In this document: one piece after another, positions 6,451 to 59,051 of the stretch
Layout of the letters: each line of letters starts with the position of its first letter
How positions within the stretch are numbered: position 1 is the stretch's first letter
Assembly: GCA_016192685.1 (NCBI GenBank)
Contig: JACPTS010000003.1
Location: forward strand, 15,119 to 79,118
Length of the DNA: 64,000 bases
Direction: 5' to 3'
DNA from: Candidatus Harrisonbacteria bacterium
GTDB taxonomy: Bacteria > Patescibacteriota > Minisyncoccia > UBA6257 > 02-FULL-45-10c
Notes under the pieces: model-generated
What the model was told of the DNA's origin: nothing
Seen by the model: the letters and a program-made list of their open reading frames with translations, nothing else
Database searches by the model: none
Made by a program: the position numbers and the translations under genes

Positions 6451-7032
6451 ATGCTGGAAAATCCAATTAGAAGACTTTCAAAAATTGAATGTGGCATGTT
6501 TTTGGCTTATGGCCTTGCGTGTCGAGGCACATGTCCGCGAGCCAGAGTTGGATGTCTGCTTATGGATAAGAACGGTTATCATATTGCAACTGGTTATAAC
6601 GGTTCTGCTCCGGGCGCGCCGCACTGCGATGATGTGCAATGCGAGTTGAAAGATGGGCATTGTGTCCGCGTGAAAGCTCATGCGGAAAAAAATGCGCTTA
6701 AGCGGGCAAAGAAATTTGGAGCATACCGCCGGCTTAAGGATGGTTATGCGTTTACGACTATCAGGCCATGCAATAGCAGTCATTGCTTTGATGATTTAGC
6801 AATATCAGGCATCAAGAATATCATTTATTTTGAGGAATACAATGCTAATCTTGTATCCGCGCATCAAGAAAAAGTATGCCAAAAAAAAGGGATTATTTTA
6901 GAAAAATTTAATCTTGATATTGTTGAACTTATACAGAAAACGCTTGATTTTCACCAAGGTCCCGGCGGACTTTTAACTGGAAAAAATAAACTCCGCATCG
7001 TGGAAGATATTCCGGAAATGATGGACCATTAA
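6451..7032 (+). CDS. comEB: dCMP deaminase (cytidine/deoxycytidylate deaminase zinc-binding family)
   Basis: HAEKNAL and PCNSSHC zinc-binding motifs (H-x-E ... PC-x2-4-C). About 190 aa. Confidence 0.8.
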   Translation: MLENPIRRLSKIECGMFLAYGLACRGTCPRARVGCLLMDKNGYHIATGYNGSAPGAPHCDDVQCELKDGHCVRVKAHAEKNALKRAKKFGAYRRLKDGYAFTTIRPCNSSHCFDDLAISGIKNIIYFEEYNANLVSAHQEKVCQKKGIILEKFNLDIVELIQKTLDFHQGPGGLLTGKNKLRIVEDIPEMMDH

Positions 7033-23093: not shown

Positions 23094-23123
23094 GATTTTG
23101 ATATAAGCCCTATTGGCCCAATT

Positions 23124-23141
23124 AGTCCTCTAGGTCCTATA
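23124..23141. repeat. TAGGTCCTA-type 9-bp motif cluster upstream of rpsJ (AGTCCTCTAGGTCCTATA)
   Basis: Member of the recurrent GTCCTA/TAGGAC motif family, about 5 bp before the rpsJ start. Confidence 0.45.
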
Positions 23142-23559: not shown

Positions 23560-23982
23560 ATGGAAAAGGTTTTAGCAACAAAATTAAAAATGACTCAAAT
23601 TTGGAAAGGCGATGCCGTTGCGTCAGTCTCACCATTGAAATTGGCTGAAAGCGCCAAAATAGAAGAATTTAAAGAAGGGGACTTAGTGAAGGTGAGCGGC
23701 GTAACCAAAGGCCATGGTTTTCAGGGCGTTGTAAAAAGATATAGTTTTGCCGGCGGACCAAAAACTCACGGCCAGAAAAATCGCTACCGGGCTCCGGGTT
23801 CTATCGGCAATACTTCTCCGCAAAGAGTTGTTCCCGGCCGAAAAATGGCCGGCCGGATGGGAGGAAAGAAAAAAACCATTCGGAATTTAACAGTCATAGC
23901 GATTAATAAGGATCAAGGAACAATTTTAGTTAAAGGATCAGTTCCGGGAAATGCCGGCGGGAAATTAACTATTATTAAATAG
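23560..23982 (+). CDS. rplC: 50S ribosomal protein L3 (short form, 140 aa)
   Basis: Conserved L3 segments (GVTKGHGFQGVVKR, GQKNRYRAPGSIG). Shorter than the canonical protein. Confidence 0.85.
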   Translation: MEKVLATKLKMTQIWKGDAVASVSPLKLAESAKIEEFKEGDLVKVSGVTKGHGFQGVVKRYSFAGGPKTHGQKNRYRAPGSIGNTSPQRVVPGRKMAGRMGGKKKTIRNLTVIAINKDQGTILVKGSVPGNAGGKLTIIK

Positions 23983-23998
23983 GTCCTATAAGACTTAT
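23979..23998. repeat. ATAGGTCCTATAAGACTTAT motif immediately upstream of rplD
   Basis: Member of the recurrent GTCCTA/TAGGAC (TAAGTCCTA-type) motif family, ending 7 bp before the ATG. Confidence 0.5.
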
Positions 23999-24005
23999 AA
24001 AATTT

Positions 24006-24632
24006 ATGGAAAATATTAAAGTTTACAATCAGGATGGCAATGTAACCGGCGAAATGGAAGCGCCGCGATTTTTATCTTCCAAATGGAATGGCGCCTTAAT
24101 CCATCAGGTATTTAAAGCAATCGTCGCGAATAAACGGCATCCGATTGCCCATACTAAGGATCGCAGCGAAGTCAGCGGCGGCGGCATTAAGCCGTGGCGC
24201 CAAAAAGGGACTGGCCGGGCAAGGCAGGGTTCTATCCGTTCGCCGCTTTGGCGGCACGGAGGAATAACTTTTGGCCCGCGGAATACCACGGATTTTTCTC
24301 AAAAAATCAACCGGAAGATGCTGAAAAAGGCGCTTTGGGAAGTTTTAGCTAAAAAATATTCTTTAAATCAGCTGAAAGTAATTAAAGATTTAGAAGTTAA
24401 TCCAAAAACTAAAGAATTAAACCGGATAATAACTAATTTAGTCGGCCAAAAAACTGCCTTATTGGCCGTAAGCAGCGCCAATAAAAATGTTTTCCGGGCG
24501 GCTGGCAACCTTGCCAAAATCAAAGCTCTGCCGATCAAAAATCTAAGCGTTTACGATGTTTTAAATTACCAATATGTTTTGCTGGATCAGGCGGCGCTTA
24601 CGGAATTAACAAATAATTATGCCTCTAAATAA
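24006..24632 (+). CDS. rplD: 50S ribosomal protein L4
   Basis: 208 aa, L4 family, in operon order. Confidence 0.9.
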   Translation: MENIKVYNQDGNVTGEMEAPRFLSSKWNGALIHQVFKAIVANKRHPIAHTKDRSEVSGGGIKPWRQKGTGRARQGSIRSPLWRHGGITFGPRNTTDFSQKINRKMLKKALWEVLAKKYSLNQLKVIKDLEVNPKTKELNRIITNLVGQKTALLAVSSANKNVFRAAGNLAKIKALPIKNLSVYDVLNYQYVLLDQAALTELTNNYASK

Positions 24633-27245: not shown

Positions 27246-27263
27246 TAAGCCTTTATTAAAATT

Positions 27264-27423
27264 ATGTTAACTCCTAAAAAAATAAAACATCGCAAGTGGA
27301 CAAAAACTCTCGGAAACCCTCGGTTTTCCGACGTCGCTTCGCTCCTGCCTTCCGATACGGGAAAACCTACGTTTTCCCGCCCCCTTTCCTCCTTTTGCCA
27401 TTTTCAAGGTAAAACACTATAAT
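27264..27423 (+). other. diverged duplicate of the rplP 5' end (52-codon u[15 protein letters not shown]...) fused to GC-rich hairpins
   Basis: Starts 19 bp after the rpsC stop and encodes [12 protein letters not shown], identical to the L16 N-terminus but with different codons. It then diverges and contains a perfect 9-bp-stem hairpin CGGGAAAAC-ctac-GTTTTCCCG. Confidence 0.6.
27395..27423 (+). promoter_or_regulatory. internal promoter directly upstream of rplP (TTGCCA, 17-bp spacer, TATAAT)
   Basis: Near-consensus hexamers with exact spacing inside the ribosomal operon, 8 bp before the rplP ATG. Confidence 0.45.
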
Positions 27424-27431
27424 AAATCACT

Positions 27432-27845
27432 ATGCTTACCCCAAAAAAGATAAAACATAGAAAATGGCAAAAGGGCCGTTCAATAAACCGGAAAATTGAA
27501 ACGCGCGGCGCCACTCTTTCTTACGGCAGTTTTGGATTAAAAGCCCAATCCGGCGCCTGGATTAACAGCCGGCAGATTGAGGCTGCCCGCCGAGCCATCA
27601 GTAATTTTGTTAAAAGAGAAGGAAAGGTGTGGATCCGAATTTTCCCGGATAAGCCGATTACCCAAAAACCGCCGGAGGTTACTATGGGCGGCGGCAAGGG
27701 AGATGTTAAAGAATTTGTTTTTCCGGTCCGGCCGGGGAGGATTCTTTTTGAAATGGACGGCGTTGCTCCGGAGATTGCCAAAGAGGCTCTCCGTTTAGCG
27801 GGATTTAAACTGCCGATTAAAACCAAAATTATCATTAAAGAATAA
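27432..27845 (+). CDS. rplP: 50S ribosomal protein L16
   Basis: 137 aa with the conserved L16 N-terminus and core ([25 protein letters not shown]). Confidence 0.95.
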
Positions 27846-27846
27846 A

Positions 27847-28112
27847 GCGATGTCTAAACTAATATTATCACTAATTAACAAGAGCTATTTTATTTTAAAT
27901 CCAAGGCGCGACAACGAGCTTGTGGTTTTACCACAGCGAGGAGGAGCAACGAAGGAGTTAAATAAAATAGCCTTGCCCTTCGGGAGAATTGATTTTGACC
28001 AATTTCTGCGTTATTTCTCCTCGCAGTATGTTCATACAGCTTCGTCGAAAAGCCTTGAAATTGATACAAAATCAATTCTTTAATTTAGTAAGAATATTAG
28101 TTTAGACATCGC
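27847..28112. mobile_element. R3-family structured palindromic element (about 265 bp, MITE/ERIC-like) between rplP and rpmC
   Basis: 20-bp perfect terminal inverted repeats GCGATGTCTAAACTAATATT at 27847-27866 and 28093-28112. Internal arms are imperfectly complementary (GCGAGGAGGA/TCTCCTCGC, CAAGGCGCGACAACGAGCTTG/CAGCTTCGTCGAAAAGCCTTG). The central motif CCCTTCGGGA at 27976-27985 is shared with the copy at 38862-39128. A third, 16-bp copy of the terminal motif lies at 28299-28314. Confidence 0.65.
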
Positions 28113-28114
28113 AT

Positions 28115-28306
28115 ATGAAGAAAGATCTATTACAAAATTTGCGAGAGAAAAATAAAGATGAACTCTTGAAAGAGCTGCAGTCTTCAAAGGATAATTTGTG
28201 GCAATTACAGAGAGATTTAAAAAGAGGCAAGGTTAAAAATATCAAAGAAGCACGTAATCTGAAAAAGACCATCGCGGTCATTAATACTTTATTAAGTAAT
28301 GTCTAA
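28115..28306 (+). CDS. rpmC: 50S ribosomal protein L29
   Basis: 63 aa, helical, L29-like, in operon order. Confidence 0.85.
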   Translation: MKKDLLQNLREKNKDELLKELQSSKDNLWQLQRDLKRGKVKNIKEARNLKKTIAVINTLLSNV

Positions 28307-28314
28307 ACTAATAT
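28299..28314 (+). repeat. solo copy of the R3 terminal motif ATGTCTAAACTAATAT between rpmC and rpsQ
   Basis: 16/16 identity to the core of the element 1 inverted repeats. It overlaps the rpmC stop codon. Confidence 0.6.
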
Positions 28315-28317
28315 AAT

Positions 28318-28623
28318 ATGAGTATTTTAAATATCTTTACCAAAATATCTCCGGAGGAAAATTCCCAATCCCGAAATCAAAAAATATCCTCGCAGAACCG
28401 CAAGTTAAAAGGCGTGGTAGTTTCTAATAAAATGAAGAAGACCGTAGTGGTGGCAATTACCCGCTCAAAAAAACATTCCAAATATCAAAAATACTTCACG
28501 GTTACTAAAAGATTTAAGGCTCATGACGAAAAAAATGAATATCAAGTCGGGGATAAAGTAATCATTCAGGAAACCAGGCCAATAAGCAAGGAAAAGCGAT
28601 GGATAGTAATAAGTAAAATCTAA
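28318..28623 (+). CDS. rpsQ: 30S ribosomal protein S17 (N-terminally extended)
   Basis: S17 core ([16 protein letters not shown] ... KRWIVI). Confidence 0.9.
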
Positions 28624-29998: not shown

Positions 29999-30006
29999 CT
30001 TTTAAA

Positions 30007-30041
30007 TAAGTCCTGTAAGACCTATAGGACTAATAAGACTT
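30007..30041. repeat. tandem 9-bp motif array TAAGTCCTG-TAAGACCTA-TAGGACTAA-TAAGACTT abutting the rpsH ATG
   Basis: Member of the GTCCTA/TAGGAC motif family, ending at the start codon. Confidence 0.55.
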
Positions 30042-33543: not shown

Positions 33544-33565
33544 CCGCTCAACTATTTTTCCAAAA

Positions 33566-33816
33566 CGGTTCGGTATACTTCTATGAGAACCGCGGTTCTC
33601 GCGCTCCAGCGGCGCGAGCCCGCTACGCCTCGCCGCGATTTTTGTTTTGCTTCGCCAAGTCTGACTTGGCTTCGCAAAACAAACCAAGCAAATCGCGGCT
33701 CCGTAGTTTCTCTACGAAGCATACCGAACCATTTTGTTTTGATAAAAATAGCTTCGCTTGGTTGGGAGAATATTTTAAAATTTGTAGTTACCGCACGACA
33801 AATAGGCATAGCTCAC
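33566..33816. repeat. R1-family GC-rich nested-palindrome element, copy 1 (between secY and adk)
   Basis: Outer inverted repeats GGTTCGGTATaCTTCtaTGAG / CTCtaCGAAGcATACCGAACC, inner pair CTACGCCTCGCCGCGATTT / AAATCGCGGCTCCGTAG, and a central hairpin TTTGTTTTGCTTCGCCAAGTC-tga-CTTGGCTTCGCAAAACAAA. The core and the tail CCGCACGACAAATAGGCATAGCTCAC recur at 35412-35558. Confidence 0.7.
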
Positions 33817-33874: not shown

Positions 33875-34558
33875 ATGAGAAAGGTAATAATAATCTACGG
33901 GCCGCCGGGAGCCGGCAAGGGGACGCAAGCGAATTTGTTGGCTGGCAAGCTGGGGTTAATCCATTTTGACACCGGAAAATACCTGGAACAGCTGCTGCAC
34001 GATTCCGAACTTCAAAAAAACCCGGAGATTAAAAAAGCAAGAAAAATTTTTGATTCCGGCGCTTTGGTAACGCCAAGTTTTGTTTTAAAAGTTACTTCTA
34101 AAAAAACCAGAGAAATTGCCAAAGCCGGCTGGGGCATAGTTTTTAGCGGTTCGCCTCGGACCCTTTTTGAAGCTTTCGGCGATTCAAAAAATGAGGGTTT
34201 AATTCCAGCTTTTGAAAAATTGTACGGCAAAAAAAATATAGTGCCGATTTTGCTGAAAATAGACCCTAAAATTTCAATTTTGCGGAACGCTCACCGCCTG
34301 GTTTGCTCAGTTTGCGGAACAGCCATTTTATACAGCGATACGGAACATCAGCATAAAACCTGCCCTCTTTGCGGCGGAAAATTATACAAGCGAGTGGTAG
34401 ATAATCCTAAGGTTTTTGGAACAAGAATTAAGGAATATCAGGAACGGACCGCGCCGATTTTAGCCGGACTTAAAAAACGCGGCTATAAAATTACGGAAGT
34501 AGACGGCCGGCCGCTTCCCTACAAAGTTTTTGACTCAATTCTGAAGAAATTAAAATAA
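33875..34558 (+). CDS. adk: adenylate kinase (zinc-binding lid)
   Basis: GPPGAGKGTQ P-loop and a lid CxxC ... CxxC (CSVCG ... CPLCG). Confidence 0.9.
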   Translation: MRKVIIIYGPPGAGKGTQANLLAGKLGLIHFDTGKYLEQLLHDSELQKNPEIKKARKIFDSGALVTPSFVLKVTSKKTREIAKAGWGIVFSGSPRTLFEAFGDSKNEGLIPAFEKLYGKKNIVPILLKIDPKISILRNAHRLVCSVCGTAILYSDTEHQHKTCPLCGGKLYKRVVDNPKVFGTRIKEYQERTAPILAGLKKRGYKITEVDGRPLPYKVFDSILKKLK

Positions 34559-34659
34559 TACGAATTTACAAATTTATGCGAATGCTGCGAAAAATACGAA
34601 TTCGTTGTATTTGTAGATTAGCATTTATTCGTAGATTTGTATTATATTAGCGTAAGCGC
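34556..34659. repeat. R2-family about 104-bp palindromic element, copy A (exactly fills the adk stop to map start gap)
   Basis: About 90% identical to 36547-36651. Contains subterminal inverted repeats AATCTACAAAT / ATTTGTAGATT and a central palindrome TACGAATTCGT. It begins at the upstream TAA and ends at the downstream ATG. Confidence 0.75.
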
Positions 34660-35412: not shown

Positions 35413-35558
35413 CTCACTATGCTTATTTGTCTACCGGCACCGGCGTTCGCCGACTCCTGCGGTCGGCGCCGCCTACGCCTCGCCGCGATTTTTCGCTTCG
35501 CAAAACCAAGCAAATCGCGGCTCCGTAGTTGCCGTACGACAAACAAGTATAGTTCGCT
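35412..35558. repeat. R1-family GC-rich element, copy 2 (after map; lacks the central hairpin)
   Basis: Shares CTACGCCTCGCCGCGATTTTT, GCTTCGCAAAACCAAGCAAATCGCGGCTCCGTAGTT and the tail CCGTACGACAAACAAGTATAGTTCGC with copy 1. Its own outer inverted repeats are GCTCACTATGCTTATTTGTC / GACAAACAAGTATAGTTCGC. Confidence 0.7.
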
Positions 35559-35817: not shown

Positions 35818-36549
35818 ATGGCCAGACCATTTCTATCAGTAATTATTCCAGCCTATAACGAATCTAAGCGGTTGCCGCTGACGCTTATTGATATTGACAA
35901 GCATTTGGAACAGCAGGAATATTCTTACGAAATTTTAGTTGTGAATGACGGCTCTGCAGACCAAACGGCAGAAATTGTAAATCGTTTTATGCCGCTGATT
36001 GAAAATCTAAAAATTATTGATAATAAAGAAAATAAAGGCAAAGGCGCGGCGGTTCGGCAGGGAATGCTCCTTGCCAAAGGCACTTGGCGGCTTTTTATGG
36101 ACGCGGATAATTCCACTTCCATCGTAGAATTTAATAAAATGATTCCTTATTTTAAAGAAGGGTATGAAGTAGTAATCGGCTCTCGTGATGTAAGGGGCGC
36201 CCGGATGCTTCCGCCGCAGGCGTTTTATAAACGCTGGCTGGGTGATATTGGCAATTTATTCATTCAAGCCCTGTTATTGCCCGGAATCTGGGATACCCAG
36301 TGTGGCTTTAAATGTTTTTCCGATGAGGCGGCGGAACGGATATTTCATCTGACAAAAATTGACCGCTGGGGCTTTGACGCCGAAGCATTGGCATTAGCTA
36401 AAGCATTAAACTATCAAATAAAAGAAATGCCGGTATTTTGGGTAAACGATCCCAGAACTCATGTATCCTGGAAAACTTATTTGCAAGTTCTCTGGGAAAC
36501 TGTTAAAGTGCGATGGTGGCTTTGGCAAAATGCCTACGGTATTAAATAA
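35818..36549 (+). CDS. GT2-family glycosyltransferase (polyprenol-phosphate glycosyltransferase-like)
   Basis: LSVIIPAYNES ... VVNDGSAD ... DAD motifs of GT-A fold GT2 enzymes. 243 aa. Confidence 0.7.
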   Translation: MARPFLSVIIPAYNESKRLPLTLIDIDKHLEQQEYSYEILVVNDGSADQTAEIVNRFMPLIENLKIIDNKENKGKGAAVRQGMLLAKGTWRLFMDADNSTSIVEFNKMIPYFKEGYEVVIGSRDVRGARMLPPQAFYKRWLGDIGNLFIQALLLPGIWDTQCGFKCFSDEAAERIFHLTKIDRWGFDAEALALAKALNYQIKEMPVFWVNDPRTHVSWKTYLQVLWETVKVRWWLWQNAYGIK

Positions 36550-36651
36550 TACGAATCTACAAATTTATGCGAATGCTACGGAAAATACGAATTCGTTGTA
36601 TTTGTAGATTAGCATTTATTCGTTGATTAGTATTACACCGAGCGTAAGCGT
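36547..36651. repeat. R2-family about 104-bp palindromic element, copy B (fills the GT2 stop to greA start gap)
   Basis: See copy A. Again spans exactly from the TAA to the next ATG. Confidence 0.75.
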
Positions 36652-38548: not shown

Positions 38549-38860
38549 ATGGGAAAGGAAGGGAAGCCTTCGGAAAGGAATCTCCGCCTCAAAATGCTAT
38601 TAGAGATTAAAAGAGACGTAACGCTTTTAATCTTCACTGCCAATTATAACGATGACCCGACAAAGATTAAGCTGAAAAAAGGCACGAAAGTAACTCTTTT
38701 AGACGATAATCCGTCAATTTGCGCCACTACCGAACGGCTGGCAACCGGTCCCAGCGTTAAAATTGAAGAAACAAAAGGCGTTGAAGTAGAAGAAAGATTT
38801 ATCGGAAAAGAAGTTACGGTTCCCGCTCAATGCCTAAGAATTCACCCCCAAGAATTATAG
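38549..38860 (+). CDS. hypothetical protein (103 aa)
   Basis: ORF. An R3 element and then a terminator follow its stop. Confidence 0.4.
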   Translation: MGKEGKPSERNLRLKMLLEIKRDVTLLIFTANYNDDPTKIKLKKGTKVTLLDDNPSICATTERLATGPSVKIEETKGVEVEERFIGKEVTVPAQCLRIHPQEL

Positions 38861-38861
38861 G

Positions 38862-39128
38862 AGCGCGGAATACGAACAGAATCAATTTAGCGGAGCTAAT
38901 TTGAGCCAGATTCAAGGCGCGAGGAGGAAATCGTAGCTTAAGCTACCTTTCCGACGAGCAACGCAGAATATGGACAAAATCGCTCCGCCCTTCGGGAAGC
39001 TCAAAAATGGCTGATTTCTTTGTTGCTCCTCCTCAAGGTATCTAAAGATACACTTTCGTCGTCGCGCCTAGAAATCATCTCATTTTTGAGCTTCTAAATT
39101 CTGATTCATGTTCGTATCCCGCGCTCCT
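38862..39128. mobile_element. R3-family structured palindromic element (about 267 bp), copy 2, in the 3' region of the preceding ORF
   Basis: Terminal inverted repeats GGAGCGCGGAATACGAACAGAATCAATTTAG / CTAAATTCTGATTCATGTTCGTATCCCGCGCTCC. Inner inverted arms GGCGCGAGGAGGAAA / TTTCGTCGTCGCGCC. Central CCCTTCGGGA at 38998-39007. Shares ordered sub-motifs (CAAGGCGCGA, GAGCAACG, CCCTTCGGGA, CTCCTC) with the element at 27847-28112. Confidence 0.65.
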
Positions 39129-39153
39129 AACTCCGGCATTGCCGGAGTTTTTC
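39129..39153 (+). terminator. intrinsic terminator (AACTCCGGC-att-GCCGGAGTT + T3)
   Basis: Perfect 9-bp stem. Confidence 0.55.
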
Positions 39154-48323: not shown

Positions 48324-49814
48324 TTATAAATAAATTATTTTAGCGCCCCCAGGAACTTCCTCAAGTTTCTCAGAAGAAATATAATAGATATTTTTTTCCT
48401 TTCGTTTTTTATCGGTAAAAGTATCGGTGAGAAAAAGGATTGTTTGGAGCGAAATCGGATTGTCGCGTTCAATTTTATCTTTTACATCGCTAACCACTAT
48501 ATATTTCGGCGTTTCTTTCGGCAAAGAATTTAAATATTGGGCAATTATTGAATCATTATAGGCAAAGGCGGGTTTTACATTAGAATTCTGGCCCCAAGTG
48601 ATGAAATAAGTTACGTAAGATTCAAACAGCAACAAACTACAAAATACATAGACAACAACTGACAACAAGCAACTACTTAATTTTGGTTTTAGAAATTCGT
48701 AAATTTTTAGACCTCCAATTGCGGCTAAAATAAAAACTGGCGGCACCGCAAGCAGAGAACGAAGCGCATGCGGCAGGCCTTCGTTAGAAACTACCACCGG
48801 AATTAAAGCGATGAAAAGCCAGATGAATAAAATTACAAATGGTAATTTTGGGAAGTCCGACCTCCTAGAATTATTATTTTCAATATTTGGGAGGTCAGAC
48901 TTCCTTAATATTGATTTAGCGCCTGAAATAATTCCGACTAAAAAGAAAATTCCGACCGGCCAGAAAAGCAGGGGGCGGCCGGCAACATTATGACGCCAGT
49001 TAAAATCGCCGAATACATTGAACATCCCTGTGGTTTTTAAAATATTAAGACCAAGATCACGAACCGGAGTTTCGGAATTAAAAATAGAAATGCTGGAAGT
49101 ACGTCCAAGAAAATCTTGAGGGTGGTTATAAAAATAAATTCCAAACGGCGCAATAGTAACAATAGCAGCAATCGCAAAAAACAAAAAAACTATTCTAATA
49201 TTCTTAAGAACATTAGAATAGTTTTTAAAATAGAAATAAACAATAAAAATTATAAGCAGGGGGGTGACGCGATAGGCGATATAAGAATGAAATCCGAGAC
49301 CATAGGTTAATCCTGCCAGAATTGACAAAAAATAAGACCAATAGGACTTATAAGATTTATATGAGAGTAATAGAAAATATAACGCCCAAATCAGGAAAAA
49401 CGGCGCCATGATGGCCCGAAAACCGATGCGGGAAAAATTAATGTGCCAAAAACTCGTAGCAAGCAAAAATGACGCTAAAAGCGCCATTTTTTTATCCGCA
49501 AAGAGTTCTTTAGTAAAAAGATATAACCCCCAAACCGTTAAAATGCCGAAAATGGCGCTCGGGAGCCTTAAAACCCAAGGTTCGTTGCCAAAAGCCGCTA
49601 TAAACAAACTTTGAATATTGATAAATAAGCCTTCCCTACCATGGTTTTCCGGATAAAAAACTTTCCAATCCCGATTTTCCCATGCCTCAACCGCGTTATT
49701 GCCGTTCATCGCTTCATCCGGATAAAGCCCCGGCGGTAATTCAGTGAAATTGTGAAGCCGCAGAAAGGAAGCTATAATTAGGATAATAACTAATAACCAA
49801 AGTTTTTTAAACAT
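48324..49814 (-). CDS. GT-C fold glycosyltransferase, ArnT/PMT-like (second paralog)
   Basis: LYPDEAMNGNNA loop-1 DE motif. 496 aa, multi-TM. Confidence 0.6.
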   Translation of the reverse strand: MFKKLWLLVIILIIASFLRLHNFTELPPGLYPDEAMNGNNAVEAWENRDWKVFYPENHGREGLFINIQSLFIAAFGNEPWVLRLPSAIFGILTVWGLYLFTKELFADKKMALLASFLLATSFWHINFSRIGFRAIMAPFFLIWALYFLLLSYKSYKSYWSYFLSILAGLTYGLGFHSYIAYRVTPLLIIFIVYFYFKNYSNVLKNIRIVFLFFAIAAIVTIAPFGIYFYNHPQDFLGRTSSISIFNSETPVRDLGLNILKTTGMFNVFGDFNWRHNVAGRPLLFWPVGIFFLVGIISGAKSILRKSDLPNIENNNSRRSDFPKLPFVILFIWLFIALIPVVVSNEGLPHALRSLLAVPPVFILAAIGGLKIYEFLKPKLSSCLLSVVVYVFCSLLLFESYVTYFITWGQNSNVKPAFAYNDSIIAQYLNSLPKETPKYIVVSDVKDKIERDNPISLQTILFLTDTFTDKKRKEKNIYYISSEKLEEVPGGAKIIYL

Positions 49815-56342: not shown

Positions 56343-57765
56343 TAAATTAATCAAATTAATAAGTCCTATAAGTCCTATAGGACCTATTCGGGTCAGAATC
56401 GCGCCATCGCCGACCGGCTATTTGCATATTGGGACGGCCCGAACCGCTCTTTTTAACTGGCTTTTTGCCAAAAAACACGGCGGCAAATTTATTTTAAGAA
56501 TAGAAGACACTGACCTGGAAAGATCCGATAAAAAATACGAAAAAGACATTATAGATGGCTTGAGGTGGCTGGGATTGGATTGGGATGAAGGACCCCATCG
56601 GCAATCGGAACGATTAGCCATTTATGAAAAATATCTTCAAAACCTCCTAAGCGAAAACCAGGCTTACTATTGCGCCTGCACCAAGGAAACTTTGGAAAAA
56701 GAGCGGCAGCTTCAAATAAAGAAAGGGGAGGCGCCAAAATACAGCGGCAGATGCCGAAATTTTAAAATTGCTCCGGAACAGGGAGAAATTATCCGTTTTA
56801 AAATTCCGCCGGCGGAGAAAATCCAATTTCTGGATTTGATTCGCGGCCCGATTATTTTTGACAGCAGCTTAATCGGGGATTTGGCTATCGCCAAAAACTT
56901 ACAAACCCCTCTTTATAACTTCGCGGTTGTTATTGACGATTACGAAATGAAAATCAGCCACGTAATCCGCGGCGAAGACCACATTGCCAATACGCCCAAA
57001 CAGATTTTGCTCCAGCGAGCCCTAAACTTTCCGGAGCCAAAATACGCCCATCTGCCGCTGATTTTAGACCCGGACCGGAGCAAAATGTCCAAACGCTATT
57101 CGGCTACTTCCATCCAAGAATATAAAGAGCGAGGTTATTTGCCGGAAACTTTAGTAAATTTTATTGCTTTGCTTGGCTGGCATCCGGCCGATGACCAGGA
57201 AAAAATGGCGGCGTCGGAAATTATCCGAAAATTCAGCCTGGAAAGAATCCAAAAGGCCGGGGCGGTTTTTGACATCCAAAAACTCAACTGGCTGAACAGC
57301 CAATATTTAAAGGAAAAATCCGAATCCGAACTGTGGCAAAAAATAAAAGAGCTTTACGATAAAAAAATCAGTATTCAAAACGAGGCGGCTCTAAAATTAT
57401 TAAAAATAGGAAAATTGAGAATGTCAAAACTGGAAGATTTTCTTTCTTTGCAGGAATCTTTAACCTTACCGGATTATGACAGCAATTTATTATCTTGGAA
57501 AAATACTCATAAAGAAACAACTAAAGAAGCCTTGCGGCTGGCGCAAGAAGTAACCAGAACCATTCTCGTCCACGAATTTAATCAAAAAAATCTGGAAAAC
57601 CAACTTATGCCCCTAGCGGACAACCAAGGAAGGGGAGAGTTCCTGTGGCCTCTGCGAGTAGCCTTATCCGGAAAAGATAAATCACCCGGGCCATTTGAGC
57701 TGATGGAAGTATTGGGAAAAGAAGAATCGTTAAGAAGAATAAATATTGCTATTGAAAAATTATAA
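56335..57765 (+). CDS. gltX: glutamyl-tRNA synthetase
   Basis: RIAPSPTGYLHIG (HIGH) and KMSKR. The first about 17 codons are encoded by the tandem TAAGTCCTA repeat array, so the start is uncertain. Confidence 0.88.
   Translation: MFSKLIKLISPISPIGPIRVRIAPSPTGYLHIGTARTALFNWLFAKKHGGKFILRIEDTDLERSDKKYEKDIIDGLRWLGLDWDEGPHRQSERLAIYEKYLQNLLSENQAYYCACTKETLEKERQLQIKKGEAPKYSGRCRNFKIAPEQGEIIRFKIPPAEKIQFLDLIRGPIIFDSSLIGDLAIAKNLQTPLYNFAVVIDDYEMKISHVIRGEDHIANTPKQILLQRALNFPEPKYAHLPLILDPDRSKMSKRYSATSIQEYKERGYLPETLVNFIALLGWHPADDQEKMAASEIIRKFSLERIQKAGAVFDIQKLNWLNSQYLKEKSESELWQKIKELYDKKISIQNEAALKLLKIGKLRMSKLEDFLSLQESLTLPDYDSNLLSWKNTHKETTKEALRLAQEVTRTILVHEFNQKNLENQLMPLADNQGRGEFLWPLRVALSGKDKSPGPFELMEVLGKEESLRRINIAIEKL
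56360..56387. repeat. tandem 9-bp array TAAGTCCTA-TAAGTCCTA-TAGGACCTA containing the palindrome GTCCTATAGGAC (56372-56383)
   Basis: Perfect 12-bp palindrome within a 3-unit tandem repeat at the gltX 5' end. Confidence 0.7.
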
Positions 57766-57773
57766 ACTAAATT

Positions 57774-59051
57774 ATGAATAATAAGTCCTATAGGACCTAT
57801 AGAGCTTATAAGTCTTATGGGGCCTATCTAATAGCGTTTTTTCTTCTTCCGCTTTTTTCACTGGCGGCGGAAATTCCTCAAAATCTTAAAAACACTATTC
57901 AAGAAAAAACCCAGGCCCTGCAGGAAATAAACCAAAAAATCCTTCAAACCGAAAAAGAGCTGGAAGAAACCGAAGGCAAAAGCCTGACTTTGCAAAAAGA
58001 AATTAAGCAAAAAGAGCGGCAGCTAAGCCAATTAAACCTCAACATCAAAGCCGGTGAAATTACTATTGAGAGATTAAACCTGGAAATTGAATCTCTAAAA
58101 TACGATGTTACGGAAACCCGAACTAAAATCAGCGCCCAAAAAAACGGCATTGCTCAAATTTTAAAATCCATCCAACGGAGAGACAGCGAAAATACTCTGA
58201 CGGTTTTACTTAAAAATAGCAGTCTGGCGGAAAGCCTGGCCGAATTAGAAAATCTTTTAAATTTAAATGTCGGCCTTAGTGCCGGCGTCAATAAACTTAG
58301 TTTTCTTGATAAAAATTTATCCGACCAGCTTGGTTTAACTGCCAAAAAACAAACTGGGGTTATTTCAGAAAATAAAAATTTAAAAAACCGGCAATTAATC
58401 GCCGGTTCGGAAAAAAATGAACGCCAAAATCTGCTTACTCGGACTAAAAACCAAGAAAAATTGTATGCCGACCAACTAAAAGAGCTGAAAAAACTTCAGG
58501 CGGAAGTATCGGCGGAAGTGGAAAAAATAGAAGCCGAGCTGCGTTTAAAAATAGACCCGGCTCTTTTGCCAATTCCAAGGCCCGGCGTGCTTTCTTGGCC
58601 GATAACTATGAAAAATCAGGGCGGAACCGGCCGTTTAACCCAAAAATGGGGAATTCCTTCGCCGCTTTATGGAGGAAGAGCGCACAATGGCATAGACATC
58701 GGAGCTCCCATTGGAACGCCAATTTTTGCCGCGGGAAAAGGCAGGGTGGCGGAAGTCTGGAATCAAGACCGGTATTGCTATAAAGGCGCTTACGGCAAAT
58801 TTATCATTATTGAACATGAAAATAATCTCACTACTTTATATGCCCATTTATCTCTTCAGTCGGTAAAAAAAGGCGATTATGTGAACCAAGGAGACTTAAT
58901 CGGCTATGTCGGCCAAACCGGCTATGCTACCGGCCCGCATCTCCATTTCACCGTCTACGCAAGCCAAACTTTTATTCTCAAATCCAGCAAAGTCAATTGC
59001 GGCCCGATTATGCCATTTGGCGGCGATTTAGATCCGCTCCAGTACTTATAG
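57774..59051 (+). CDS. M23-family peptidase with N-terminal coiled coil (EnvC/LytM-like)
   Basis: HNGIDIGAPIGTPIFAAGKGRV and HLHF M23 motifs. Signal peptide after a repeat-encoded N-terminus. Confidence 0.8.
   Translation: MNNKSYRTYRAYKSYGAYLIAFFLLPLFSLAAEIPQNLKNTIQEKTQALQEINQKILQTEKELEETEGKSLTLQKEIKQKERQLSQLNLNIKAGEITIERLNLEIESLKYDVTETRTKISAQKNGIAQILKSIQRRDSENTLTVLLKNSSLAESLAELENLLNLNVGLSAGVNKLSFLDKNLSDQLGLTAKKQTGVISENKNLKNRQLIAGSEKNERQNLLTRTKNQEKLYADQLKELKKLQAEVSAEVEKIEAELRLKIDPALLPIPRPGVLSWPITMKNQGGTGRLTQKWGIPSPLYGGRAHNGIDIGAPIGTPIFAAGKGRVAEVWNQDRYCYKGAYGKFIIIEHENNLTTLYAHLSLQSVKKGDYVNQGDLIGYVGQTGYATGPHLHFTVYASQTFILKSSKVNCGPIMPFGGDLDPLQYL
57782..57828. repeat. TAAGTCCTA-type array containing GTCCTATAGGAC (57785-57796) at the 5' end of the M23 peptidase gene
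   Basis: ATAAGTCCTATAGGACCTATAGAGCTTATAAGTCTTATGGGGCCTAT, with the same units as at gltX, rpsH and rplD. Confidence 0.7.

Follow-up and report, generated by a model that had tools for sequence, protein, structure and literature searches.

A probable MITE of a widespread palindromic family between rplP and rpmC in a Candidatus Harrisonbacteria genome

Introduction

The genes rplP and rpmC normally lie close together, and a stretch of 64,000 nucleotides from Candidatus Harrisonbacteria bacterium (referred to here as the window) raises the question of what kind of sequence separates them there. A first-pass annotation had described an approximately 265-bp palindrome of non-coding type at this junction, bounded by perfect 20-bp repeats. 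This description holds: the palindrome, termed E1, is 266 bp long and its ends are exact reverse complements of each other. E1 is very probably a non-autonomous DNA transposon (MITE) that belongs to a widespread family of palindromic elements of about 270 bp, and a sister copy, E2, lies elsewhere in the window. On this reading a minimal CPR genome carries a mobile element in its most conserved operon.

Layout of the element and its sister copy

E1 begins one base past the TAA of rplP and ends two bases ahead of the ATG of rpmC (Table 1). Its first 20 bases, GCGATGTCTAAACTAATATT (27847-27866), are the exact reverse complement of 28093-28112 and form a perfect terminal inverted repeat. The imperfectly complementary arms and the central motif that had been noted earlier are also real, the arms being 75% complementary over 61 nt and the motif GCCCTTCGGGA occupying the centre between them. 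The core of the right arm (CGTT..CTCCTCGC..hairpin..TTCGTCG..GCCTTG) is approximately the reverse complement of the core of the left arm. No plus-strand terminator-like site, composed of a GC-rich hairpin and a T-run, is found within 27847-28112.

Table 1. Positions of E1, its parts, the solo terminal repeat and the sister copy E2 in the window
Feature	Position	Strand	Remarks
E1	27847-28112	+	complete 266-bp element, probable MITE; between rplP stop (27843-27845) and rpmC start (28115)
P1 terminal helix, 5' strand	27847-27878	+	20-bp terminal repeat (27847-27866) plus extension (27870-27878); MFE structure
77-codon ORF	27850-28083	+	from ATG in left terminal repeat to TAA in right terminal region
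Left arm	27879-27974	+	stem 27879-27895 with 27959-27974
Left-arm conserved core	27902-27911, 27944-27951		CAAGGCGCGA (27902-27911), small variable hairpin, GAGCAACG (27944-27951)
Central mini-hairpin	27975-27985	+	GCCCTTCGGGA; CCC-NNN-GGG; loop varies among sister copies
Right arm	27984-28079	+	stem 27985-27997 with 28067-28079, 13/13 paired
P1 terminal helix, 3' strand	28079-28112	+	2 nt short of rpmC ATG
Solo terminal repeat	28298-28314	+	AATGTCTAAACTAATAT, 17 nt; supplies last rpmC codons (..SNV*), stop and spacer ahead of rpsQ
E2	38860-39127	+	268-bp sister copy; ends TA-GGAGCGCGG...CCGCGCTCC-TA

The diverged homolog that had been placed at 38862-39128 is a genuine second copy, but its limits were slightly off and the true ones are those given in Table 1. 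The left end of E2 coincides with the stop codon of a 103-aa gene, and the element is followed by a hairpin with a T-run (about 39131-39153) and then by serS. An nhmmer profile of the family matches only two places in the window, namely E2 (E = 2.4e-28) and positions 27898-28061 of E1 (E = 3.7e-15). When both copies are folded, E1 reaches -95.6 kcal/mol (z = -10.4) and E2 -115 kcal/mol (z = -9.1), and they adopt a common shape which consists of a long P1 helix, a left arm, a three-pair CCC-NNN-GGG hairpin and a right arm. The helix sequences of E1 and E2 are almost wholly different yet remain paired, the cores are conserved, and the central 11-mer GCCCTTCGGGA recurs in E2 at 38987-38997. Because the arms of E1 and E2 carry mutually inverted cores, the minus strand resembles the plus strand and folds equally well.

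The 16-mer ATGTCTAAACTAATAT from the terminal repeat occurs exactly three times, at 27850-27865 (+), 28094-28109 (-) and 28299-28314 (+), whereas shuffled sequences yield about one match even when three mismatches are allowed. The third copy that had been reported after rpmC is thus present, but it does not duplicate the end of E1. It is closer to the consensus terminus of the subfamily described below (GCAATGTC...) than to the terminus of E1 itself (GCGATG...), which identifies it as an independent solo terminus; the sequence at its left junction, TAAGTAATGTC, is similar to those found there in E1 and in another copy, L144. Judged from these similarities, the third motif is best read as the putative relic of a second copy that once occupied the rpmC-rpsQ junction. 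A parallel to the solo terminus after rpmC is provided by a groundwater contig (L173, reverse strand 7006-7030), in which a solo 25-nt subfamily terminus fills the 29-nt spacer between two genes. An RNA switch formed by the 3' strand of P1 and the third motif was considered and rejected: in the MFE fold of 27840-28330, P1 is closed and the third motif has no partner.

Insertion after the split from the closest relative

In the closest sampled relative (L135/L136), whose L16 is 99% identical, the junction reads rplP-TAA-AAAAG-ATG-rpmC and is free of E1. The rpmC gene of this relative aligns over its full length with that of the window and ends in ..LLNQQ* followed by ACC-ATG; the rpmC gene of the window ends in ..LLSNV* plus the 17-nt motif. 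Since the relative carries neither E1 nor the third motif, both are lineage-specific. E1 is present in all eight contigs of the same strain, and the rplP-rpmC spacers of more distant relatives also measure only 4-8 nt. E1 is an insertion that postdates the split from the closest sampled relative, and the earlier proposal that it had been inserted into a normally tight gene pair is confirmed by the empty orthologous junction. An insertion that followed the split from so similar a relative implies that these reduced genomes still undergo active transposition. The relative has a sister copy elsewhere (L135, 4987-5251), between rpsN and rpsH, in which the central loop is flipped (CCCGAAGGG).

A broad palindromic family

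The three-motif pattern AGGCGCGA..GAGCAAC..CCCTTCGGG was searched in contigs representing one genome per species and was found at no fewer than 120 loci, in at least 120 species genomes (GTDB) from at least eight phyla. The phyla among the matches listed are Pseudomonadota, Verrucomicrobiota, Acidobacteriota, Planctomycetota, Omnitrophota, Elusimicrobiota, Gemmatimonadota and Patescibacteria, and the genera among the matches listed include Pseudomonas, Azotobacter, Halioxenophilus and Novosphingobium, together with a Staskawiczbacteria CPR genome. With E2 and seven more sites in related CPR genomes, these matches supply the further copies that the first-pass annotation had anticipated. In some species several contigs of one genome were matched, and additional copies that miss the strict pattern are located nearby. 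Plasmid copies sit between unrelated genes and have no annotated feature beneath them. Viral contigs gave one three-motif match. A GC-rich IMG/VR contig that is classed as viral (L012) holds a full family member at 1007-1285.

The elements measure 271 bp in the median, with the inverted ends taken as limits, and have a fixed architecture, in which a long terminal helix encloses two arms, each with a purine-rich core and a small hairpin, and a CCC-NNN-GGG centre. Half-size variants of about 175-200 bp (L014, L020, L022, L040 and L122) consist of P1, the left arm and the central hairpin, and lack the right arm. Two sister copies on L141 (279-545 and 2998-3264) are like that of L135 in that, relative to E1, the central loop is flipped (CCCGAAGGG) and the arm cores are swapped. 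The core exists in two variants, CGACGA..hairpin..GAGGAG and GAGGAG..hairpin..CGACGAG, in which strands of the GGAG and CGAC types have traded sides of the small hairpin, an exchange that would preserve tandem G-A pairs. The arms appear to have been exchanged as modules between copies. A rod form with full pairing of the left arm to the right arm was rejected, as in E1, E2, E3, L141a, L144 and L147 the core variant of one arm does not depend on that of the other.

No named family was found in the literature for the palindromes of about 270 bp. The R200 (320 bp) and R26 (352 bp) repeats of P. fluorescens could be the same element (Silby et al. 2009). The kind of element is known; as far as we have found, the breadth of its conservation and the subfamily with a through-going ORF are undescribed. 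Of bacterial MITEs, 97.4% are reported to be confined to one genus (PMC11602168). Measured against the almost invariable genus-specificity found in large surveys, it is unusual for the interior fold of a MITE to be recognised in organisms as far apart as Pseudomonas and Patescibacteria. An interior of 200 bp that is recognisable across phyla is not accounted for by a plain MITE. The nested palindromes, which are perfect on both strands, may be kept so either by selection for hairpins at each end or by repair within the hairpins. Because Pseudomonas carries the family, it offers a tractable system for the function of a conserved MITE interior.

Termini and class of element

Most members of the family end in (C/T)TA-GGnnCnGT. 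Nearly all members have an A directly beside the element, and in about 65% a T precedes it; TA is its own reverse complement, and E2 is flanked by TA...TA. Some flanks in the broad family vary as inverted pairs, CA...TG, so that the 'TA' may in part be repeat sequence. In many gammaproteobacterial members the terminus is GGGTCTGTTGACGTT, which also bounds an 845-bp element in a Paracoccus plasmid (L150). This element contains two frameshifted ORFs, and its product, with DUF4096 and DDE_Tnp_1, is annotated as an IS5-family transposase. In one case the match between a family terminus and an IS terminus extends over 15 nt. Seven related transposase elements in viral contigs display the same terminal pattern (CTAGGGCGTGTTGGCG, TTAGGCTCTGTTGACA, TTAGGAGCCGTGGAC and others) and have TA on both sides with non-complementary outer bases (Y..R), which indicates a TA duplication inside YTAR. 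Elements of the IS427 group are 832-865 bp long, contain two frameshifted ORFs and have 2-bp direct repeats (PMC3281130). As the (C/T)TA-GGnnCnGT termini match insertion sequences of this group, the family is assigned to MITEs of the IS5/IS427 type.

The agreement differs between copies. The terminus of E2, TAGGAGC, matches the start of the IS in L158; E1 and the IS termini have only a loose pattern in common (..TGTCT..AAC). The ends of E1, GCGATGTCTAAAC and GCGATGTC, fit the terminus pattern of the family loosely, and as its atypical flanks read AA...AT and not the canonical TA...TA, a target duplication is not demonstrable for E1. The interior has in common with IS427-type left ends a short motif about 50 nt from the tip, GATTCAAG, which precedes a hairpin that in the insertion sequences covers the ribosome-binding site; by nhmmer there is no significant similarity between the interior and the IS ends. 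From these comparisons we infer that the family is a MITE with IS5/IS427-type ends, the arms of which may derive from the left end of an insertion sequence. The elements are shorter than 500 bp, have terminal inverted repeats and no transposase, occur as copies at different sites and are matched by an empty orthologous site, all of which is characteristic of MITEs. The proposed mechanism is mobilisation in trans, in which a DDE transposase of the IS427 type would act on the copies through recognition of their terminal repeats. On this view the arms would be one transposon end in two inverted copies, so that each DNA strand would present the same fold on its 5' side.

Autonomous partners were sought by tblastn on all loci, in a plasmid collection and by an exact-terminus scan of metagenomes, and were found only for the proteobacterial terminus type. 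With an IS5-family transposase as query, tblastn detected no transposase gene in the window or in the CPR loci that were fetched, and the scan of metagenome contigs with an exact 22-nt terminus returned MITE copies, one solo terminus and chance matches, and no autonomous element. The missing cognate transposase in CPR loci would also suit a mobile element that is moved as folded single-stranded DNA by a non-DDE enzyme, either HUH/RAYT-like or a hairpin-reading recombinase, and so would the solo termini, the nested hairpins that are kept by structure and not by sequence, and the same purine-rich arm at the 5' side of each strand. The IS5-type termini would in that case be convergent, which is difficult to reconcile with a 15-nt terminus match to IS427-group elements and with the TA flanks common to both; moreover, none of the copies examined has an HUH or recombinase gene linked to it, and this route is considered improbable. 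Tn3-type TIME elements were rejected: the termini of the present family bear a superficial GGGG-like resemblance, but 5-bp duplications are lacking. Mobilisation of a MITE by an IS427-type transposase is the preferred reading in what follows.

The CPR subfamily and its open reading frame

A search with the 77-aa ORF of E1 retrieved nine protein clusters of 73-85 aa with 64-100% identity. The loci from this search and from the exact-terminus metagenome scan, counting E1, E2 and the L135 copy, make up ten independent sites of a CPR (Harrisonbacteria-type) subfamily: rplP-rpmC, E2, rpsN-rpsH, rplR-rpsE, secY-adk, rpsI-DUF2238, rpmF-x, after a dsbA-like gene, before an amidohydrolase gene and before rplM. 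At all ten sites the copy is co-oriented with the genes. Complete copies that have a downstream gene terminate 2-5 nt before its ATG, and copies with an abutting upstream gene start within about 10 nt of its stop codon, with the exception of the secY-adk copy, which lies about 230 nt past secY. An ORF of 73-89 codons runs open from terminal repeat to terminal repeat in copies of the subfamily, and in all six copies analysed frame +1 contains the terminal stop only, compared with 3-13 stops in the other five frames. E2 has no through-going ORF and sits before a terminator-like hairpin, not between coupled genes.

Nine clusters of related products, and a frame that is open in all subfamily copies where the other frames are closed, are what would be expected if the 77-aa ORF encoded a genuine small protein and the palindrome in the DNA were secondary to it. 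Among the closest pairs dN/dS amounts to 0.06-0.3, on 1-6 changes each, so that some selection on the peptide is possible. The mean dN/dS of the ORF is however 0.67, and variable columns are distributed over the three codon positions as 22, 21 and 27 of 55, with no excess at the third. The C-terminal third is read in different frames among copies, Pfam contains no match for the 77-aa ORF, an equivalent ORF is missing in E2 and in members from other phyla, and copies differ in the helices by compensatory changes, which include swaps of whole hairpins. A protein-coding gene thus has a low likelihood. The earlier view that the ORF is probably non-coding stands with respect to the peptide, given the mean dN/dS, the frame-shifted C-terminus and the lack of a Pfam match, but not with respect to the frame, which is kept open in copies of the CPR subfamily. 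The simplest reading of these alignments would be that the open frame is conserved rather than the peptide, and the peptide is probably not the selected product.

The conserved frame may serve as a relay that carries ribosomes through the hairpin. In the gene-dense genomes of Harrisonbacteria-type CPR, only insertions that preserve operon expression would survive. Ribosomes leaving rplP would restart at the ATG in the left terminal repeat, melt the hairpin while reading the ORF and stop 9-31 nt short of the next ATG, from where they would start again on rpmC. Shine-Dalgarno motifs are absent before these genes in this genome, which makes translational coupling more plausible. If true, such a relay would be a simple means by which a selfish element cancels its own polar effect within operons. 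These elements are labelled by gene callers as hypothetical proteins of 73-89 aa, which is an annotation artefact.

Conserved structure and strand symmetry

Covariation was analysed in 54 diverse members of the family. Double-sided changes are seen in 46 of the 52 consensus pairs, and within P1 every pair has changed on both sides (20/20). Paired cells account for 84.8%, compared with 53.8% after shuffling, and the covariation score is 0.713, compared with 0.19 after shuffling and 0.13-0.20 after a shift of the partner by 1-3 columns. A structure conserved among relatives, which had been suggested as a check on the element, is therefore found, and it is backed by heavy covariation. The more stable strand is plus in 45 elements and minus in 48, and G-U pairs number 421 and 460 on the two strands. 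Relative to flanking genes, as determined for the broad family by a crude gene call, 24 elements lie in the same orientation, 14 in the opposite one, 17 between convergent and 12 between divergent genes. The equal folding of both strands and the near-random orientation point to a DNA element and not to an RNA gene on one strand, and the symmetric complementarity is what would be expected of a DNA element with two equivalent ends.

The other possibility raised by the first-pass annotation was a novel structured RNA within the ribosomal superoperon. One version of this is a structured non-coding RNA that works for the cell, perhaps by regulating the S10/spc ribosomal-protein transcript in cis or by providing a site for its processing, with the palindrome merely as its gene. 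Such an RNA would accommodate the very stable fold of E1 (z = -10), the very strong covariation, the co-transcription of E1 with its operon past no internal plus-strand terminator-like site, and the co-orientation of CPR-subfamily copies with genes (10/10). It would not be expected to be missing at the corresponding junction of the closest relative, nor to occur at unrelated junctions in sister genomes. In Rfam 15 the window and eight family loci give only noise at the gathering and E-value thresholds, and none of the CPR, Pseudomonas, Acidobacteria and Verrucomicrobia copies covered by the search was matched. Together with the lack of strand asymmetry in energy or G-U pairs, the near-random orientation of the broad family and the IS-type termini, this makes an RNA gene very improbable, and the proposal is not upheld. 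Hammerhead, twister, group I, retron, attC and bridge-RNA candidates were rejected on the grounds that no motif fits, no protein gene is linked and Rfam is silent.

For the MITE that is preferred here, a tentative and rather speculative extension concerns its interior. It is possible that the interior constitutes a functional folded nucleic-acid module, with symmetric arms, purine-rich loops of the tandem G-A type and a GC clamp, which has been kept for a long time or has spread across at least eight phyla and which serves propagation or tolerance by the host. In Harrisonbacteria-type CPR it might have become a 'translated MITE', in which the terminus-to-terminus ORF would avoid polar damage between coupled ribosomal-protein genes.

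Comparison with known elements

MITEs of the IS427 group are the bacterial counterpart of the eukaryotic PIF/Harbinger-Tourist MITEs. Like IS5/IS427-group MITEs, the present elements have (C/T)TA-GGnnCnGT termini with TA on both sides in a YTAR-like target, are shorter than 300 bp, lack a transposase, occur in many intergenic copies per genome and differ in presence or absence at orthologous sites. Unlike them, they conserve a 200-bp interior fold across at least eight phyla and not the termini alone; furthermore, the termini of E1 (GCGATGTC) and its flanks are atypical, and the CPR subfamily is without a known partner IS. In REPIN/RAYT systems two inverted hairpin modules form a larger hairpin, and the elements are long-lived and conserved by structure. 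The present family likewise places inverted hairpin modules in a larger hairpin and conserves structure, but it has no GTAG-type motif and no nearby RAYT gene, and it has long terminal inverted repeats and TA flanks. Translation through a preserved open frame is known from two other groups of palindromic repeats, the Rickettsia palindromic elements (RPE) and the ORF-containing RU elements of enterobacteria. RPE lie in frame inside host genes and join the host protein, whereas here a separate ORF lies between two genes.

ERIC/IRU and Correia (CREE) elements are, as is generally known, transcribed, hairpin-forming and TA-associated palindromes inside operons (PMC3184786), which they have in common with the present family, but they are about half its size. 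No nhmmer similarity was found between ERIC and Correia consensus sequences and the family profile, which is a weak test, and blastn against all complete E. coli genomes gave no match. The earlier description of a MITE-like or ERIC-like hairpin family is thus supported in its MITE-like reading by the copies, the empty site and the fold.

Other repeats and insertions in the window

The spacer between rpsC and rplP (27246-27467) contains an insertion that lies inside the 5' part of rplP. An insert of about 168 nt follows the 12 codons with which the native gene began (27264-27299; codon usage as in the relative). It includes a sigma-70-like promoter matching at 11 of 12 positions (TTGCCA-17-TATAAT, 27395-27423) and ends with a synonymously different copy of the 12 codons (27432-27467) that now heads the gene. 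The closest relative reads rpsC-TAA-T-ATG-rplP at this place, and the insert is present only in contigs of the same strain. The secY-adk spacer (33560-33745) holds a different, GC-rich palindromic element with the ends GGTTCGGTATACTTCTATGAGAA and TTCTCTACGAAGCATACCGAACC, of which a partial copy with 73-92% similarity lies after map (35430-35539). A direct repeat of 92 nt with 95% identity is found after adk (34553-34644) and after a glycosyltransferase gene (36544-36635). Finally, a 9-nt unit, TAAGTCCTA or TAGGACCTA, forms short intergenic arrays in seven spacers, including rpsN-rpsH, at 1670-1709, 23110-23140, 23977-24007, 30004-30034, 49330-49360, 56348-56387 and 57770-57827.
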